A stretch of DNA of 64,000 nt from positions 42,052 to 106,051 of the forward strand of contig RDOC01000005.1 of the NCBI GenBank assembly GCA_011364985.1, given 5' to 3'. Origin of the DNA: Candidatus Thorarchaeota archaeon. GTDB taxonomy: Archaea > Asgardarchaeota > Thorarchaeia > Thorarchaeales > Thorarchaeaceae. The number at the start of each line of letters is the position of its first letter. The stretch's first letter is position 1. The notes under the pieces are model-generated. The model did no database searches. It worked only from the letters and a program-made list of their open reading frames with translations, and was not told the origin of the DNA. Shown piece after piece: positions 42,003-64,000 of the stretch. The translations under genes and the position numbers were made by a program.

Positions 42003-42161
42003 ATGCCAGTTGCTGATATCGAAAAGCGCAGACTAGCACAACACTACCTGCTCTACAAGTCAATATGCAGATACTGTGGAGCGACTAATCCACTTAAGGC
42101 TAAGAAGTGCAGGAAATGTAAGAACAAGGACCTCAGGCCAAAGAGGCGGTCAAAGAGATAG
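42003..42161 (+). CDS. rpl40e: 50S ribosomal protein L40e
   Basis: Not in the ORF track: MPVADIEKRRLAQHYLLYKSICRYCGATNPLKAKKCRKCKNKDLRPKRRSKR (52 aa). Confidence 0.93.
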   Translation: MPVADIEKRRLAQHYLLYKSICRYCGATNPLKAKKCRKCKNKDLRPKRRSKR

Positions 42162-56536: not shown

Positions 56537-59185
56537 ATGCGAGAGTTGCAGAATCAGCTAAAGGCCTTGGGAAATCGGTATGCAGTGGAGATGTTGGAGA
56601 TTCTGAATCCACACATGGGAGAAATCATTCCAAGCCTCGGCTGGGATGGGATCATTGATGGTATACTGCAGCTTCAGGGTATCGAGAAACCAGCTGATAG
56701 AAACGGGGAAAGAAGAACACAAGAAGAGGCTCGCTATCAGAAGTTTAGGCGGAAGTTCGTTTCTGGAGGGACTCTCTATGAAACAATGAATAAACTAATC
56801 AATGTGGGATTCGTAAGCGCTGAGGGAGCAAGAGGACGAAAGAACCGTCAGTTCAGAATCACTTACGCTGGAAGACTAGCCCTATCTGCAATCACAGGAA
56901 TGAGAGGACCTATCATTCCGAATACGGAGGTACGAGAAGCCGCTCAGGTTTTGCTTCGCCATAAGAACTTTACGACCTTACTGCCTGCACAGAAGAAATT
57001 CTTGGACGAAATTGGCGTCGTGGACAGGAACCTGATAATACAGATGCCACCAGGATCAGGAAAGACCTTCTTAGCAATGATTACGATCTTGATACGACTC
57101 CAAAGGGGCATTAGATGCCTGTACTTCAGTCCGTACACGTCATTGAATAGTCAGGTGATAGAGGAATACGAAAAGCTTTTCCAAAGCCTAGGTTATACAG
57201 TGGCAAGACATGATGGACGCCACAGGTCTACATCAGAGAAACTTGAAAGGGCAGACCTAGTTGTCAGTATCATCGAGTCAGTGCTAACAGCAGCTATGGG
57301 CAATGAGAAATGGATGCAAAAGATTGATCTCATCGTCATTGATGAGTTTGCTGAGATGGACTCCCAAATCATCGAATTTGATGCGCAAAGCATCGGAACT
57401 GACAGGAGTACGAAACTGGATGTTCTTGTGACCCACCTTAAACAGAAAGCTCAGTTGATTGCTTTGTCATCCAGATTCGGCGAAACTGAGGAGGCCAGTG
57501 ATTGGCTGGAGGCCGATGTATTTAGACCAAGTGTACGTCTTACACCAGATGAATACATAGTCACCATGGGAGATGTCGGAGTAGAGATAGGCAGCGCAGA
57601 TGGAACACATTGCGCTCGATTCAAGAGCCAGGACATGGTCGGCTGTGTTTTGGAACACATGGGGGACTATCAGGAAAAGGCCGTCTTGGTGGTTGCAGGC
57701 TCAAGACTTGGTGCCGAGTTCATGGCTCAGGAACTAATCAAGTCGCATCCTCGCCATGTGGGTGAAGAAACAATATCAACGATTATTGGTCAAGAAGGTG
57801 AATTACCAGTCACAATGCGGCTGAAAGATTGTCTGACCAAAGGTGTAGCGTTCCACCACTCTGGTCTTGACCCAGAGGTACGTGAACGACTTGAGAGAAG
57901 TATCAAAGAAGGAGCTGTCAAGACCGTAGTGTCCACAACGGGGATAACTTCAGGCATGAGCTTTCCCTTTGATTCTGTAATCATTCTGATTGGCTTTGGG
58001 CTGTTCTTCTTCATTAGCAGGTCGAAATACCTTCAGATTGCAGGAAGAATCGGAGAGTATTATTTGGCACGCAAGGGAGGAAGTGTATATCTTGTTTTTG
58101 AAAGCCCTACAAGGCAATTTCCCGATGCTGAGAAGCTAGAAGAAATGTTGCTTCATAAGCCTCTATCACCTCTTACGCCCGGCCAAATCTATCCATCATT
58201 GGCTGCTAGCATAGTAATGAAGAATGCAGCCACTCGGCGTGAATTCTCAATGGCCAAAGCCAAGAACGAGTTCATGAGATTCGTTACAGGAACTTTTCGT
58301 GGCTCTGTCGATGAAAGATACTCGGAGGACATGGAAGGGCTCTTCACGGAGCTCTTCTTATGGCTCGTTAAGGCAGGGCTCATGGAGTCAAGGGAGAAGG
58401 AGTTCAAGTTGACAAGAGAAGGACGTGCTGTAATCGCCGCAGGTCTAGATCCCATCAACTATGTGACGTTAAGAAAGGACCTATATGCCGTTGACAGAGG
58501 TACAAATGATATCCAGATTATCGATCTACTACTTCGGTTCAGTGTTCCTCAAGCTGTGAGACCGAGAGCGCTAATCCCAGAAGACATCGAAATAAGGCTC
58601 GCTGGCTTTGAACCGCCCTCAGAGAGATACCATAGCTTCAAGCAAAAGCGTGACGAGTTCAAGAAACTTGTGCTTGGTGGCTGGGTAGATGAACAGGATA
58701 TTTCAACCATCATAGGTCATGCCTTGAATGAAACTAAGCAAACGACGAAAGGTGGAACTCCGCCAGTGGGCAGTGATTTTGGGGAAGGAGATGTTCAAAT
58801 GCTGGTTGGCATATGCAGCGATATTGCCCTAAGCATGAGCAGCTTCTATGAGAAGATAAAGAGGAGGGATGCGGCGAAGCGTTTGAAGATCATGAGTGTG
58901 CAGCTGCTTCATGGGGTAAGAAACGATCTTGCCTCTACAGATCTTTTTGACCTAGTACTTCTGGCAGAAGATGGTTTCCCTGAGCGGATGCTTACCAGAT
59001 CTGAGATACGGACGTTATACGACAGAGGATATCGTTCCATATCCGATGTTGTGAGGAAGGATATCGACCGAGAAAAGAGCGGGTTTGCACGAGATAGATT
59101 CGCTGCCAACTGTGGTTTCGAGAACACATTTGCGAAAAGAGTATACCGTGCGGCCATGGACCACGTGAAGGCACAGTTGTCTTGA
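56537..59185 (+). CDS. Ski2/Hel308-like SF2 helicase with N-terminal winged-helix
   Basis: LLPAQ, MPPGSGKT, IVIDEFA, ALSS, GVAFHHSGL, QIAGRIG; N-terminal LKALGN...GTLYETMNKL..GFV...ITYAGR. Confidence 0.88.
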   Translation: MRELQNQLKALGNRYAVEMLEILNPHMGEIIPSLGWDGIIDGILQLQGIEKPADRNGERRTQEEARYQKFRRKFVSGGTLYETMNKLINVGFVSAEGARGRKNRQFRITYAGRLALSAITGMRGPIIPNTEVREAAQVLLRHKNFTTLLPAQKKFLDEIGVVDRNLIIQMPPGSGKTFLAMITILIRLQRGIRCLYFSPYTSLNSQVIEEYEKLFQSLGYTVARHDGRHRSTSEKLERADLVVSIIESVLTAAMGNEKWMQKIDLIVIDEFAEMDSQIIEFDAQSIGTDRSTKLDVLVTHLKQKAQLIALSSRFGETEEASDWLEADVFRPSVRLTPDEYIVTMGDVGVEIGSADGTHCARFKSQDMVGCVLEHMGDYQEKAVLVVAGSRLGAEFMAQELIKSHPRHVGEETISTIIGQEGELPVTMRLKDCLTKGVAFHHSGLDPEVRERLERSIKEGAVKTVVSTTGITSGMSFPFDSVIILIGFGLFFFISRSKYLQIAGRIGEYYLARKGGSVYLVFESPTRQFPDAEKLEEMLLHKPLSPLTPGQIYPSLAASIVMKNAATRREFSMAKAKNEFMRFVTGTFRGSVDERYSEDMEGLFTELFLWLVKAGLMESREKEFKLTREGRAVIAAGLDPINYVTLRKDLYAVDRGTNDIQIIDLLLRFSVPQAVRPRALIPEDIEIRLAGFEPPSERYHSFKQKRDEFKKLVLGGWVDEQDISTIIGHALNETKQTTKGGTPPVGSDFGEGDVQMLVGICSDIALSMSSFYEKIKRRDAAKRLKIMSVQLLHGVRNDLASTDLFDLVLLAEDGFPERMLTRSEIRTLYDRGYRSISDVVRKDIDREKSGFARDRFAANCGFENTFAKRVYRAAMDHVKAQLS

Positions 59186-59195
59186 GGAGACACAT

Positions 59196-59702
59196 TTAGG
59201 CTTTACCAAAATCCCATACTGCATCATTTACATGATGCTTTGAAAGGACTACCTTCCCCCCCGATGCAGAACGCATATCTTCGGATGACATCAGAGAAAC
59301 GCCCACTGCTAAGGGTTTTCCATGTCGCTCGTCCACAACTGCTACAATAGATCCTTCTGCAATGCTATTATCAATCTTGGTCACTCCGGGACGCATAATG
59401 TCAGCACCATTAACAACATACTTCACAGCCCCCATATCCACTGTGATGTGAGGAATCTGAACATAACCTTCTAGGAGGGCGTATAGGGTCGGAATAAGTC
59501 GTTTTTCTAACTCAAAGAAGATTATTGACCCATCAAGAAGGAGCACTGTAGTACCTTCATCCAATAATCCCTCCTCAAGGTTGGTCTTGTCGTCAAGATT
59601 CTCTACAGAAACTCCAAGGTCATCCTCTATCTGCTTCAAACGAGCCCGTCTGTCCCTCTTCTTTAGAAGATGACGCTTTTTTAGTCTTTCAATCTTTGGC
59701 AT
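59196..59702 (-). CDS. PUA-domain RNA-binding protein (MCT-1/Tma20-like)
   Basis: IPTL...VDMGAVKYVVNGADIMRPG...HHVNDAVW. Confidence 0.92.
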   Translation of the reverse strand: MPKIERLKKRHLLKKRDRRARLKQIEDDLGVSVENLDDKTNLEEGLLDEGTTVLLLDGSIIFFELEKRLIPTLYALLEGYVQIPHITVDMGAVKYVVNGADIMRPGVTKIDNSIAEGSIVAVVDERHGKPLAVGVSLMSSEDMRSASGGKVVLSKHHVNDAVWDFGKA

Positions 59703-59845
59703 CCTATGGTGAAGCTATCGTTATCCCTTTTGAAAGCTATGGATATGTGTGTAACTGCATCGTCATGTTTTTAAGCCACAGTCGAAAGAGAGCCCGAGTG
59801 CCCGGATTCAAGGTCCGGGACGATACTTCTGTGTTGGTGAAATTC

Positions 59846-60106
59846 GTGAATGCAGGTCGGCCAATGGAGCTACTCCAGAAATCGATAGGGGCTCAAGTGC
59901 TTGTGGAGCTCAAAGGAAGAAGAAAGATCAAGGGACGCTTGCTCGGATTCGACCAGCACTTGAATCTCGTCCTCGAGGGCGCAGATGAAATCTACATGAA
60001 TCCTGAAACTGAAGAAGAAATTGTGACACACATTGAGAACGTCGTTGTTCGAGGCGATAATGTTGTCATAGTTTCGCCACCCCCGAAAAAGAGCAAGAAG
60101 GAGTAG
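59846..60106 (+). CDS. Sm-like archaeal protein (SmAP1)
   Basis: RPMELLQKSIG...VELKG...GRLLGFDQHLNLVL...VVRGDNV; GTG start after a GGTGA SD; precedes rpl37e. Confidence 0.95.
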   Translation: MNAGRPMELLQKSIGAQVLVELKGRRKIKGRLLGFDQHLNLVLEGADEIYMNPETEEEIVTHIENVVVRGDNVVIVSPPPKKSKKE

Positions 60107-60113
60107 GCGATAA

Positions 60114-60302
60114 ATGGGTAAAGGCACGCCATCAAAGGGTAAGAAGAACAATCCACATCACATTAGATGCAGAAGATGCGGTCGTAGGTCTTACCATGTG
60201 AGACACAAGCAGTGTGCAGCCTGCGGATACGGTGCCTCAGCCAAAATTCGTCAATATAGTTGGTCTCACAAGAAGTACTATGGTCCTCGAATAAAGGGAT
60301 AA
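60114..60302 (+). CDS. rpl37e: 50S ribosomal protein L37e
   Basis: MGKGTPS...[13 protein letters not shown]...CAACGYG. Confidence 0.97.
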
Positions 60303-60324: not shown

Positions 60325-60439
60325 AATTCGAAAGCTCAGAAAGCAAGCCAATCATCTTCTGTCGGTTTGAAGCTACTTCATTGCATCAATAGCTTATTCT
60401 CAGAGAAATCCTATATATTATGACCTTCTTGAAATCGTA

Positions 60440-60599
60440 ATACTTCAGGAATACAACGACGAGTCCGACTGCACGATTGACATGTGCTCTCCATAGCCGT
60501 TCTCGGGCTCCCCACCTGGCTGTGGGTCGTCAGGATGGTTGGGTCCTGTCTGGAGAGGTCCGTGAGGAGGGTGATACCATGAATTCCTTGAGAATTCAC
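60440..60599 (-). pseudogene. Frameshifted remnant of a cassette anchor (third copy)
   Basis: IHGITLLTDLSRQDP, then after a 1-nt deletion NHPDDPQPGGEPENG, versus LHDILLEVDLSRHDPNHPDDPPLSGDPEEG in the 61261-62106 ORF. Confidence 0.75.
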
Positions 60600-61271
60600 C
60601 TAGTCTAATTCCACATCATTATTAGAAACAGAAGTGCTTTGTTCTGACGCATTTTGTGAAATGATGAGCAGGTACCCTCCGCCTACACAAATGATGACTG
60701 GAACCAAGAAACCAATAAGCAGGGAATAGGTCAGACACAAGGCAGGCATGAATACCATCAGCAGCATCACGAAGCTGCACAGAATGATCACAGCAATCAT
60801 ATACAGCCTGACGCTCTTAAGAGCCGAGGCAGAGAATTCTGGTGTCGGAGGCTTCGGAAGTTCACCCTTGGTCCTGCCTTTTGTGATAGAGGAAATCTCT
60901 CGTACTTTCGCCCAGGTAAGCAGAATAGGTGCAGCGAAACAGAATAATACAGTAAATGGAGTAATTGGTGTCAGAGATGGTTCCAATTCCAGTAGCATGG
61001 AGAATGAGGCGAGAATTCCGAATTCAATCAAAACCCACCCCCAAATGAATAGACTCAACCAAATAGCCCACCACTTCTTTATGTCTTCACGATAGAGCCT
61101 GTAAACTCCTCTGGCGAAACCAAAGGCGGACTTCTTTGTATCACTGCCCTTCATTTGTTTCTCAGATTCCTCCACTGTCTGATCAACAATCTCGTTTCCG
61201 AGAAAGGCGATCAAAACGCCCGCGATAAGTACCGACTGAATAATGAGGTTCATTTTATAATCAAGCTCCAT
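60600..61271 (-). CDS. Membrane protein, candidate cognate immunity/partner of the 61261-62106 cassette
   Basis: About 5 TMs; start overlaps the upstream cassette stop by 11 nt. Confidence 0.7.
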   Translation of the reverse strand: MELDYKMNLIIQSVLIAGVLIAFLGNEIVDQTVEESEKQMKGSDTKKSAFGFARGVYRLYREDIKKWWAIWLSLFIWGWVLIEFGILASFSMLLELEPSLTPITPFTVLFCFAAPILLTWAKVREISSITKGRTKGELPKPPTPEFSASALKSVRLYMIAVIILCSFVMLLMVFMPALCLTYSLLIGFLVPVIICVGGGYLLIISQNASEQSTSVSNNDVELD

Positions 61272-62106
61272 AATTATAGAAGTGCGGTGCGTATATGGTC
61301 ACAAAAACGACAAACAGCAGTACAAAGACAAACCTGCTCCATTTTGTGAATTGGATGGCAGCCTTGATCGCTTCGAATGTCGTCTTCATGGCCCAGGCAA
61401 GGGTCTTTAGAATCGCTGTGGCTCCAATGCCCCCTATGGTTTTTAATCCTGCTGCGATGCATAAACAAGATATTCCTAAGGTGAGAAAGAACCAAGCAGC
61501 TGCTCCTGCTGCCCATATGCCATTATCCACTAACAAATGTGCATTCCACCATGCCAACCCGAGTGTGATAGCCATGACACCCACCACAACTGCAATTTCA
61601 CCCCAACCTGTCGGAATCTTCTCAGCTATAGCGCATGCTAATATCAATGCGTAAATCCATCCGTAAATCCCGGCCATGAATGCCCCTATCCACATTGCGT
61701 TAATGAAGTCGTCCTCATTGAGTCCCATTGAGTCTGATTCATACACCACTGTGTCGCCCAAGAGGTCCACAGCCATGTGAAAGATGGTCTGAGTAACTAC
61801 CAAGAAGTGCAGTAACGGCCACGGACCTGTCCATTCAGTCTCAACCTCTTCCGTAGCATCTGATAGATGGGTGTCCACCTCGGCCTGCGTTCTTGGTGAG
61901 AATCCTTGTTCTGTTCCATCGAAGTCATTGCCCTCCTCGGGGTCTCCGCTGAGCGGCGGGTCGTCAGGGTGATTGGGGTCGTGTCTGGAGAGGTCCACCT
62001 CCAGCAGGATGTCGTGGAGGCGAATATACAGTTGGGTGTATCTACTGTAAAGGCAGTTCATGCCTCTTGCATTCTTGATAATCAATTCAAATGGAACTCT
62101 TACCAA
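61261..62106 (-). CDS. Variable multi-TM C-terminal cassette (candidate orphan toxin CT)
   Basis: Anchor DLSRHDPNHP...TGPWPLLH...HMAVDLL, then 4-5 Gly/Ala-rich hydrophobic helices; the N-terminal start is doubtful. Confidence 0.7.
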   Translation of the reverse strand: MVRVPFELIIKNARGMNCLYSRYTQLYIRLHDILLEVDLSRHDPNHPDDPPLSGDPEEGNDFDGTEQGFSPRTQAEVDTHLSDATEEVETEWTGPWPLLHFLVVTQTIFHMAVDLLGDTVVYESDSMGLNEDDFINAMWIGAFMAGIYGWIYALILACAIAEKIPTGWGEIAVVVGVMAITLGLAWWNAHLLVDNGIWAAGAAAWFFLTLGISCLCIAAGLKTIGGIGATAILKTLAWAMKTTFEAIKAAIQFTKWSRFVFVLLFVVFVTIYAPHFYNYGA

Positions 62107-62635
62107 GAATTGACCTTGCGGCCTCGCCTATGGCATCATCTCTATCACTCAAGTAGCGTATCAGTCTCCCATAATCTGCTTTCAGCAATCTCCTATCATG
62201 GATACATCTTTCTATCTCAAGGTTGAGAATTGCTTCTGAGAAAGGCACCATCTTCGCTCTGGCCTGAAGATAGCCTTCAAAGGTCTTCAATGGGTCTACA
62301 TCTGCTCTCATATGAAAGAACCCCGGCAGAACTCTTGTCATGGCAAACAGGGCAAAGAGTACAATGGCTCCATACACACGAAATATCAGGTATCCACTCA
62401 AAGTGACTAAAGCTAGCTGCGCCAACGTACTCGCCCACCATCGCTTCGCATATTCGTTCGTCCTTGAACGGCGTGATTGAATCATGGCCTCATACACTTC
62501 TGGATCATCTGGAAACTCCATTCTGAACGTCGTTGCTTTGTCGAATGCTCTGTCTGACCACCAGAGAAGCGCGGCAGAAAGAACAATGAGGCCAAAGCCC
62601 AAGAACTGTTCAACCTGTGTGCCTAGCTCCTGCAT
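62087..62635 (-). CDS. Membrane protein, candidate orphan immunity/partner gene
   Basis: About 3 TMs plus a soluble C-terminus; the ATG directly abuts the TAG of an upstream cassette remnant (TAGATG). Confidence 0.7.
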   Translation of the reverse strand: MQELGTQVEQFLGFGLIVLSAALLWWSDRAFDKATTFRMEFPDDPEVYEAMIQSRRSRTNEYAKRWWASTLAQLALVTLSGYLIFRVYGAIVLFALFAMTRVLPGFFHMRADVDPLKTFEGYLQARAKMVPFSEAILNLEIERCIHDRRLLKADYGRLIRYLSDRDDAIGEAARSILGKSSI

Positions 62636-62758
62636 CTAGATGCCCCCATAATAGCATTCATAGTGATGGTATGCTGCCATTCCGAATATCGCCATCAGTA
62701 GCAATACCACTAATCTAGTGAACTTTAAGGTTTTGCAAAATCCTCTGATGACTAGCTT
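62636..62758 (-). pseudogene. C-terminal 40-codon remnant of another cassette
   Basis: KLVIRGFCKTLKFTRLVVLLLMAIFGMAAYHHYECYYGGI* resembles the 61261 ORF end (QFTKWSRFVFVLLFVVFVTIYAPHFYNYGA*); no anchor and no plausible start. Confidence 0.6.
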
Positions 62759-62764
62759 CTACTG

Positions 62765-63214
62765 CTATTCCTCCTCATCCATAGGGTATTCCAACTTCAC
62801 TATTCCGCTCTCCACGAAGTCCTTCAACCTATCCTTCACATCTGGACGTTTAAATCGACTTCTAAGAAGAGGGTACTTCATCATGAAGAACATGATGAAT
62901 CCAATGAAGGTCACCAACACAAAGCCACTGATGATGATGACACCCCCTCCTGAGATATAGAGTATGTTGATGATTCGATTCCAAGCCTCAGGATCATGCT
63001 TGTACCGTTCATAGATGCTTTTCCTAACGCCTGTCAGCTCCAATACTCCTTCTTGGTGACCGCGTTGAGATATCCACTCATTCTTAATTCCCTGTATAAC
63101 CGGTCTTTCCAGTGCTTCGCTAATCTCCTGTAATATAGTCCCGAGAACGAAGACCAATATACCTGTCCCTCCAACTGACCACAGGTATGTCAAGAATCCC
63201 AATAAATCCTGCAT
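62765..63214 (-). CDS. Membrane protein, candidate cognate immunity/partner of the 63231-64000 cassette
   Basis: 2-3 TMs; GAGGTGAG SD; starts 16 nt after the cassette stop. Confidence 0.72.
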   Translation of the reverse strand: MQDLLGFLTYLWSVGGTGILVFVLGTILQEISEALERPVIQGIKNEWISQRGHQEGVLELTGVRKSIYERYKHDPEAWNRIINILYISGGGVIIISGFVLVTFIGFIMFFMMKYPLLRSRFKRPDVKDRLKDFVESGIVKLEYPMDEEE

Positions 63215-63230
63215 GTGCTCACCTCACAGA

Positions 63231-64000
63231 TCATGATCCTGCCAGATTCCAATAATACATCATAGCTACCAGGGACGCCGCGATCATAGTACCAATAAAG
63301 AATGCAGTGAATCCTCCAAACGAAACACCTATCTTCGTTCCTGGGCTGTATCCCAAACGGTCTTGAGCAAATCGGAACATGTCTGACGCTTTCTGTTGGA
63401 CTTCATTATTGAAGTTTTTCTTGCCCCGCTGATTAAGGGCGTCAAACACCATCGCGCCTATGCCCAACCAAAACACAAATGCTACGGAAATTCCGAACTG
63501 TTCTCGCAACCTCTCGCCTAACCACCATGCTCCAGCAAGAGTTACAGCTGCACACAAGATTCCTATACTTAATACCCCGAGTGAAAAGCTCGAATCGACC
63601 ACCATGAAAGAATAAAGCGCTGCATTGAATCCCTTGGAAATAGCTGTAGCAACTACCGCATCCAATCCGAGCATGAGTGCAGCCATCACGATCTCCCATT
63701 GCTCCTCCGTAATTCCAAATAGCTGTAGAGCCCATGTGATAAGAAATAGGTCTACGATGTTGATATTTCTAAGCAAGTCGATTGTGATATGGACAATACA
63801 GGAAAACGTGCTTGTTGGATCTAATACTATCAGATGAAAGAGGGGCCACGGTCCGGTCAAGTCGAATCTGACCAGTTCCTGAGCAGCCGTACATAGATCA
63901 TTGTCGCATTGTTGAAGATTGGCTTCTGTTGCAATTCCTTTCGTCGTCCCATCATAGATTTGCTCCTCGCCGGGGTGGTTGGGGTCGTGTCTGGAGAGGT
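63231..64000 (-). CDS. Variable multi-TM C-terminal domain with conserved anchor (partial, frame open past window end)
   Basis: The frame continues upstream of the listed ORF: LSRHDPNHPGEEQIYDG...VRFDLTGPWPLFH...HITIDLL, then hydrophobic helices. Confidence 0.75.
   Translation of the reverse strand, partial: LSRHDPNHPGEEQIYDGTTKGIATEANLQQCDNDLCTAAQELVRFDLTGPWPLFHLIVLDPTSTFSCIVHITIDLLRNINIVDLFLITWALQLFGITEEQWEIVMAALMLGLDAVVATAISKGFNAALYSFMVVDSSFSLGVLSIGILCAAVTLAGAWWLGERLREQFGISVAFVFWLGIGAMVFDALNQRGKKNFNNEVQQKASDMFRFAQDRLGYSPGTKIGVSFGGFTAFFIGTMIAASLVAMMYYWNLAGS

Follow-up and report, generated by a model that had tools for sequence, protein, structure and literature searches.

Organization of the cassette array

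The DNA analysed in this work (the window) is a stretch of 64,000 nucleotides (nt) from a Candidatus Thorarchaeota genome (G000), the assembly of which is 74% complete. It corresponds to positions 42,052 to 106,051 of contig C18, and its position 64000 is the end of that contig. Here we describe an array of membrane-protein cassettes located on the minus strand at this end, in which C-terminal (CT) frames or their remnants alternate with small partner genes. Each CT frame carries a conserved anchor motif followed by a variable hydrophobic part, the tip.

In the direction of transcription, the array begins with CT-1 (63231–63998), a frame that is open at the window end and contains the anchor (LSRHDPNHP, 63972–63998), an acidic linker, a TGPWP neck (about 63843–63857) and a tip with four hydrophobic segments. 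Its TGA stop codon is followed by a 16-nt gap with a Shine-Dalgarno-like GGTGAG sequence and then by the ATG of its partner P1 (62765–63214), which encodes 149 amino acids (aa) with two transmembrane segments. The next element, remnant A (about 62636–62764), consists of the last 40 codons or so of a deleted tip of class 6, and its stop codon is fused to the start codon of P2 as TAGATG. P2 (62087–62635; 182 aa, two transmembrane segments) is the intact, solo partner of that deleted tip and has an RDDxIG tail at its C-terminus. CT-3 (61261–62106) is an intact cassette truncated at its 5′ end, with about 35 aa of the end of a larger protein body, the anchor (HDILLEVDLSRHDPNHP, about 61969–62020), a linker, a WTGPWP neck and a membrane tip of four helices. 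Its stop overlaps by 11 nt the start of its partner P3 (60600–61271; 223 aa, four transmembrane segments). The array terminates in remnant B (60411–60599), a 62-codon anchor stub (ITLLTDLSRQDP) with a frameshift into linker sequence (NHPDDPQPGGEPENG), which adjoins an ORF (open reading frame) resembling ribosomal protein L37e.

CT-1 and CT-3 can be aligned over their first 80 residues or so only, with 38% identity, and are divergent beyond that point. The motifs common to both are LSRHDPNHP, TGPWPL[FL]H and H..[IV]DLL. Hydrophobicity analysis gave four to five segments per CT frame and two to four per partner. The guanine plus cytosine content of positions 61500–62000, which include the CT-3 anchor and linker, is 0.52, the highest of any 500 nt in the last 14 kb (about 0.45–0.47 elsewhere). 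An initial interpretation of the window made from its letters alone (the sequence-only reading) had listed these ORFs, the shared motifs and the three tight junctions, and all of them are present as it described.

The contig end cuts CT-1 inside its anchor, so that CT-1 may be either one more cassette or the live tip of an unassembled parent gene. A Logan contig from another public assembly breaks at the same anchor. In addition, a second, related array is found at the start of contig C16 of the same genome, with a copy of CT-3 (79% identical) and a copy of P3 (65–67%).

Parent genes in related genomes

Extension of the contig past position 64000, suggested by the sequence-only reading as the way to a full-length gene ending in the anchor, was prevented by the contig end itself, but genes of this kind were found in relatives. 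In a six-frame search of the 87 genomes of the order, 24 had junctions like that of CT-3; many of these lay in arrays and some at the end of open frames of 1,000–1,300 aa. The full-length parents are 1,060–2,120 aa long and have the same anchor, after which comes a variable membrane tip of about 170 aa with four helices. Four frames of 1,162–1,303 aa have in common a body of about 850–900 aa (45–55% identity) and the anchor, and then end in unrelated tips. The parent body was present in 35 of the 87 genomes, including G065, which belongs to the same genus as the window genome. Short frames retain nested 3′ pieces of the body (positions of about 670–850, 735–850, 775–850 and 795–850), all terminating at the anchor, and the short "orphan" frames are therefore 5′-truncated copies of the parent end and not independent genes.

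A close relative of the window genome is EAX95, a metagenome-assembled genome (MAG) of Thorarchaeota (GCA_011365025.1). The tip of its parent P0163 (1,077 aa) shares 73% identity with CT-3 over 279 aa; the gene that follows shares 59% identity with P3, and after it comes an anchor stub resembling remnant B. Therefore, the block formed by CT-3, P3 and the stub in the window is the live end of a parent in a related genome. The large exported parent with an exchangeable tip postulated by the sequence-only reading thus has its counterpart among relatives, with a tip of the CT-3 class and a partner of the P3 class.

The flanks of the EAX95 parent locus map, with about 80% nucleotide identity, to ends of contigs C1 and C2 of the window genome, which are without cassette parts. 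Therefore, the window genome's own parent locus is probably situated in an unassembled gap between C1 and C2. The arrays of C18 and C16 may then be further loci, or CT-1 itself may be the live tip. Since the flanks of the EAX95 parent locus are quite different from those of the window array, arrays occupy several genomic sites.

In EAX95, three tip/partner pairs (L068:5856–9767, minus strand) are inverted and stand head-to-head with the parent (L068:10001–13234, plus strand). Inversion between inverted anchors could swap tips there without loss, in the manner of a shufflon rather than by deletion. An inverted truncated copy is also located upstream of the parent in G038 (contig C56).

Co-variation of tips and partners

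A hidden Markov model (HMM) of the junction, with the consensus ...RVIKYV.ILGYRYSSY.LVDMRIHDINVVADLNRHDP - linker - YWTGWWPLLH...H.TVDLLG, identified 139 junction-bearing frames in 55 loci. The tips beyond the junction were uniformly 155–200 aa long and nearly all of them were followed, at −60 to +80 nt, by a gene for a 100–240-aa protein with two to four transmembrane segments. In 100 complete units, the tips fell into 28 BLAST clusters and the partners into 56. Tip and partner similarity were strongly associated (2 × 2 table [[4779, 11], [105, 55]]; odds ratio 228), although the P-value overstates the significance because kin are not independent; pairs between genomes agree with this result. 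Of the 66 partner-similar pairs, 55 were also tip-similar.

The window classes recur as pairs in other genera, and in this respect the sequence-only reading, in which conserved tip-partner pairings were expected, proved right. The CT-1/P1 pair recurs in G015, where the tip of cassette L028:5702–6577 is 42.5% identical to CT-1 and P1 has 24% identity (E-value 4e-11) with the gene that follows a CT-1-class tip. The CT-3/P3 pair recurs in G016, G073 and G074, with 23–26% identity between P3 and those partners. The tip at position 4149 of C16 and its partner recur as a pair in G003, and the class pair of remnant A and P2 also recurs in other genera. A class-specific, co-varying partner is found immediately downstream of nearly all tips.

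Several partner classes that are otherwise unrelated end in a common tail, R-[DN]-D-x-[IVL]-G-x-[AF]-[AFR], which is present in P2, in L004:5091–5585 and in many others and is missing from P1 and P3. This tail may be a cytoplasmic interaction helix. Profile alignment with hhalign gave a weak match between the P2 class and class 0 (probability 40%) and no similarity between the P3 and P2 classes.

Recombination at the anchor, decay and selection

Up to and within the anchor, sequence identity tracks the genome (0.62–0.63 within genomes against 0.45–0.51 between them), whatever the tip class. In the linker and neck, by contrast, identity depends on tip class (0.48 against 0.30), irrespective of genome. 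In 23 full-length parents from the databases, there was almost no correlation between body identity and tip identity (r = 0.18). Of these, P0031 and P0169 (the parent from G065) are the closest pair, with bodies that are 84% identical and tips that cannot be aligned; closely similar bodies do carry different tips, in line with what the sequence-only reading had anticipated. Windowed identity between these two parents was 0.87–0.97 through RIHDINVVADLS and about 0.2 from the next residues. The anchors within the window genome have exact matches of 15–31 nt.

Decay affects tips and partners differently. Remnant A matches the extreme C-termini of class-6 tips (78% identity over 37 aa in G073, 68% in G004 and 64% in G002), and P2 matches exactly the partners that follow class-6 tips (54% in G073, 33% in G004, 29% in G002, 28% in G009 and 25% in G015). 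It follows that P2 is a partner that outlived its tip. On C16, a class-8 tip is broken by stops and its class-8 partner is intact. Remnant B has 78% nucleotide identity over 133 nt (exact match, 31 nt) with the junction on C16 between the P3 copy and the next anchor. The ratio of nonsynonymous to synonymous substitution rates was 0.33–0.43 for CT-3 and 0.31–0.55 for P3, and the intact copies of tip and partner are under purifying selection.

The stretch is represented in marine-sediment metagenomes by two run entries that have the same size and may be a single data set deposited twice. At both anchors, contigs from these metagenomes join the same anchor to different neighbours, which explains the assembly breaks. 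Two contigs read ...SNPLLEMRV|HDILLEV..., that is, a canonical body end on the CT-3 anchor, and others have different linkers after the CT-1 anchor. These contigs suggest that more copies exist than the MAG shows. Another contig joins position 62018 to 63961, skipping 1,942 nt, and was rejected as evidence of recombination at the anchor, given that its short side is 32 nt and that the joint links non-homologous positions out of frame (the homologous counterpart of 63998 is 61992); it is probably a repeat-induced chimera or another copy. In two metatranscriptome runs of the same study there was no contig matching the stretch, a result with no bearing on expression.

Structure of the tip and of the parent body

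The module beyond the anchor consists of an acidic linker containing DG[TS], then a neck (WTGPWP..H...H..VDLL) and finally a membrane bundle of about 170 aa with four helices. The structural model of CT-3 is confident only in its membrane part (residues 125–271, with a predicted local distance difference test score, pLDDT, of 85–95), which shows four long helices and short amphipathic helices between the third and the fourth. Glycine and alanine make up 20% of tips and 13% of partners. The aromatic-rich tail with glycine attributed to the CT frames in the sequence-only reading is present as a trend, a modest one, since F, W, Y and H account for 23% of the last ten residues of tips against 15% overall. 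Loop 3 of the tips (about 33 aa) carries on average 4.2 lysine plus arginine (K+R) residues in the 55 tips with four clear segments. Matches of the window proteins to Prominin, DUF3185 and Ni_hydr_CYTB lay below threshold and were discarded as chance matches on hydrophobic segments. The complex predicted for the CT-3 membrane part and P3 scored 0.21 (mark, 0.32), which gives no verdict, and it was used neither way.

The parents have an N-terminal signal or anchor helix, a domain similar to clan CD (caspase-like) peptidases, and beta-sandwich, lectin-like repeats; some of them carry Pfam DUF2341, Glce_b_sandwich or fn3. His106-Gly and Cys141 (numbering of the EAX95 parent) were invariant in 24 parents, and in a model with a pLDDT of 77 the beta-strands 100–104 and 135–138 precede H106-G107 and C141. 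The best Foldseek matches of this domain were CHAT (8tl0, E-value 5e-4), MALT1 and the MARTX CPD, with low template modelling scores, and a profile search of the parent against the PDB gave no match. With a His-Gly and Cys dyad placed after strands, the modelled N-terminal domain has the features of the caspase fold of clan CD and is a putative peptidase.

The conserved anchor, ...MR[IV]HD....DL[ST]RHDP, ends the last repeat of the body. The sequence before it repeats a motif internal to the body (a weak second HMM match) and, therefore, the anchor most likely corresponds to the closing strands of the last beta-sandwich repeat. Of the best 150 database proteins, about 25 have precisely the conserved anchor methionine (DMRIHD, profile position 19) as their first residue, as does L004:418–645. 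These starts are either a habit of gene callers or a real internal start giving stand-alone tips.

Flanking genes

The window array adjoins a cluster of housekeeping-type genes at positions 56537–60302. By eye, we take these to be an ORF of the size of a Ski2-like helicase (56537–59185, plus strand), a 168-aa ORF (59196–59702, minus strand), an Sm-like-looking ORF of 136 aa (59696–60106, plus strand) and the small, cysteine-rich, basic L37e-like ORF mentioned above (60114–60302, plus strand). Downstream of the second array, on C16 (L004:7761–10467), there is a 461-aa ORF with a radical-SAM-like CxxxCxxC motif and then an overlapping 445-aa ORF, which could be a peptide-maturation or cofactor pair. 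Beside the inverted cassettes of EAX95, at L068:5082–5563, a DUF4258/DUF2283 gene pair is recorded in precomputed Pfam annotation; we presume that this pairing resembles a small toxin-antitoxin module.

Distribution and comparison with known systems

All database relatives of CT-3 are annotated as "hypothetical protein" and belong to Candidatus Thorarchaeota. A profile built from 44 diverse junction-plus-tip sequences had 262 matches in 1.84 billion representative proteins, always at the C-terminus, in proteins of about 250–460 aa or about 1,100–2,100 aa. The anchor motif matched no curated family of Pfam, NCBIfam or PADLOC, in agreement with the sequence-only reading, which had not recognized it. 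No paper describing the system was found in a literature search and none combining "Thorarchaeota" and "polymorphic toxin"; the survey of archaeal polymorphic toxins of Makarova et al. (2019) may list the family.

The layout is similar to that of the polymorphic toxins CdiA-CT/CdiI, Rhs-CT/RhsI and MafB/MafI (PMC3482391), in that a large exported protein has a conserved body sharply separated from a hypervariable C-terminal module, a small gene specific to the class of that module lies directly downstream, and 5′-truncated cassettes retain a piece of the body that is the recombination handle. Decay of tips with persistence of partners, and a caspase-like domain of a type often used as releasing peptidase, are further points of likeness. 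Orphan CT/immunity modules have been shown to be functional (Poole et al., 2011; PMC3150448), and caspase-like releasing peptidases are common in polymorphic toxins (PMC3482391). However, systems of the classical kind are seldom found in archaea and come from bacteria (Zhang et al., 2012; PMC3482391), while the host is here an Asgard archaeon, the variable part is one four-helix membrane module instead of diverse enzymes, and the partners are new families of membrane proteins. Hence, the polymorphic-toxin layout claimed by the sequence-only reading holds for the conserved body, the sharp junction, the class-specific downstream gene and the arrays of truncated cassettes, but not for diverse toxin domains. 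Pfam scans of nine parents revealed neither the haemagglutinin/FHA repeats, VENN pre-toxin motif or CdiB transporter of CdiA/CdiB nor the YD repeats or PxxxxDPxGL core end of Rhs/YD toxins, and no type 5, 6 or 7 secretion partner; the junction motif is R[IV]HD...DL.RHDP rather than the VENN of CdiA. The system combines a polymorphic-toxin-like layout with previously undescribed protein families.

Hydrophobic, membrane-acting C-terminal modules with an adjacent small integral-membrane protector are known from CdiA-CT(EC93)/CdiI(EC93) and from the pore-forming colicins. The pairing of a hydrophobic module with the gene of a small integral-membrane protein is alike in the present system, but no similarity in sequence or fold was found. 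The pore domains of colicins are soluble bundles of ten helices with a buried hydrophobic hairpin, inserting later, whereas the tips described here have four transmembrane segments and a basic cytoplasmic loop, as polytopic domains inserted co-translationally do. In IdsD/IdsE of Proteus mirabilis, a large protein meets its small integral-membrane partner in the membrane, and identity resides in regions of the two that co-vary. The present system is comparable in having a co-varying large protein and small membrane partner, and differs in that Ids depends on type VI secretion and is not known to have cassette arrays.

An archaeal system of similar organization is VARTIG of Thermococcales, the function of which is likewise not established (Makarova et al., 2021; PMC8416519). 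It also comprises a large secreted protein, the hypervariable C-terminal part of which recombines, and downstream of it small membrane proteins that differ between subfamilies. However, the variable part of VARTIG is an extracellular Ig domain and not a membrane-embedded four-helix bundle, the protein families and the phylum are distinct, and the 5′-truncated cassette arrays and the caspase-like body are features of the Thorarchaeota system.

Interpretation and alternative explanations

There is good support for a polymorphic cassette architecture in which recombination takes place at the anchor, and we regard it as highly probable. The overall best explanation, which we consider rather probable, is that a polymorphic surface-protein system specific to Thorarchaeota is represented in the window by the promoter-distal part of one of its cassette arrays. 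The tip and its partner would be exchanged together between the parent and 5′-truncated cassettes through homologous recombination at the anchor; displaced tips would then decay and the partner genes would remain intact. According to this mechanism, the window would contain CT-1/P1 cut by the contig end, remnant A with P2, the intact truncated CT-3/P3 cassette and the terminal anchor stub.

With respect to function, an effector/protector pair is favoured because of the layout, the co-variation and the partners surviving without tips. The partner would be the cognate protector against the tip, a membrane effector specific to the strain and used against or between related cells, and from the layout the partner may be considered an immunity protein. 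Such an antagonistic, toxin/immunity-like function of tip and partner is proposed tentatively, its likelihood being slightly less than even. With greater reserve, it is conceivable that this is an archaea-native effector/protector system, restricted to Thorarchaeota, in which a membrane bundle reaching neighbours kills non-cognate cells or marks non-kin. The caspase-like domain would possibly process or release the parent protein, and the bundle would reach neighbouring cells by membrane contact, vesicles or fusion.

Several results weigh against this interpretation. The parent body was not found in the 74%-complete assembly of the window genome, and because of this the link between cassette and parent rests on relatives and on synteny. 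Nor were solo partner genes found outside arrays in this genome with the queries used. None of the five window proteins gave a hit above cut-off in Pfam, NCBIfam or PADLOC, that is, to any known toxin or immunity family. The fold of the CT-3 tip had no better match than E = 1 in the PDB with Foldseek, a wide search with VIA-align retrieved designed or generic helical bundles (Z of about 10 or less), and feature and structure searches of the Atlas yielded no usable match for the tip or P2. In the same 55 tips described above, predicted cytoplasmic loops have 5.0 K+R and outside loops 1.9 in an N-out topology. This positive-inside pattern fits an N-out topology behind an exported body, which is that of an ordinary co-translationally inserted anchor; in this the tips resemble common polytopic anchors of the producing cell's membrane. 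No support was obtained for the pore formation suggested by the sequence-only reading, nor for toxicity: no toxin fold was found and the tips obey the positive-inside rule. That reading had also regarded CT-1 and CT-3 as ending in different domains and they do diverge after a shared start, but all tips are variants of one module, unlike the many enzymes of classical toxins. Regarding delivery, there is a signal-peptide-like N-terminus only, and no secretion-system gene was noticed beside the parents, no systematic search having been made. We know of no delivery route of the tips to another cell.

The alternative that survives best is a non-lethal recognition of self or kin, in which tip and partner would form a lock-and-key pair of membrane identity, like IdsD/IdsE. 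Matching pairs would signal "self" during cell-cell contact or membrane exchange and the cassettes would supply new identities. One homologous tip module with many allelic classes (the 28 clusters in 100 units) and co-varying membrane partners speaks for this explanation, as does the location of the variation in transmembrane helices, which is also the case in IdsD/IdsE. It also accommodates tips that lack a toxin-like fold and resemble resident membrane domains, and a beta-sandwich, lectin-like body (DUF2341 and Glce_b_sandwich in some parents) suits contact at the cell surface. Nevertheless, partners that stay intact after their tips decay or are deleted fit protection from the tips of others better. 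Moreover, the exposed body is conserved and the buried part variable, so recognition could not occur at the surface, and no transfer machinery is known. We consider this alternative rather unlikely. The variation of a receptor or of recognition that the sequence-only reading had named as its own alternative retains some probability.

It is improbable that the system is merely structural, the tip being a polytopic anchor of a surface protease or lectin, the partner an assembly or stabilizing subunit and the arrays decaying duplicates. This would leave unexplained the abrupt loss of similarity at the anchor in parents with 84%-identical bodies, the tip classes common to several genera while anchors homogenize within genomes, the purifying selection on truncated cassettes and the retention of partners without tips, although the positive-inside topology, the generic helical bundle, the many broken cassettes and the lack of toxin or immunity homology are all as it would have them. 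Finally, that each ORF with an anchor is a complete gene in its own right, one of a family of membrane-protein paralogues for which there is no parent, is very improbable and largely refuted, for the frames retain body pieces of varying, nested length and do not have a conserved start, the same tip classes occur on full-length parents and the tip topology without an exported body would presumably violate the positive-inside rule, even if gene callers annotate many of them as 250–460-aa proteins, about 25 of the best 150 database matches begin at the conserved anchor methionine and in-frame TTG and ATG codons are present near the 5′ end of CT-3.

Significance

The anchor repeat explains the recurrent assembly breaks in Thorarchaeota MAGs, and the junction profile is a means to find these loci. 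All the families of which the system is built are annotated as hypothetical in databases, and its range is limited to a single Asgard lineage. Even if it is not antagonistic, it clearly illustrates how, in nature, cassettes can vary a transmembrane domain along with its membrane partner. If the tips do act on other cells, it would show how Asgard archaea compete or recognize their kin and be their first native system of conflict or recognition between cells. In that case, it would also imply a regular exchange of membrane proteins between cells, a point of relevance to models of the close contact between cells before eukaryogenesis.

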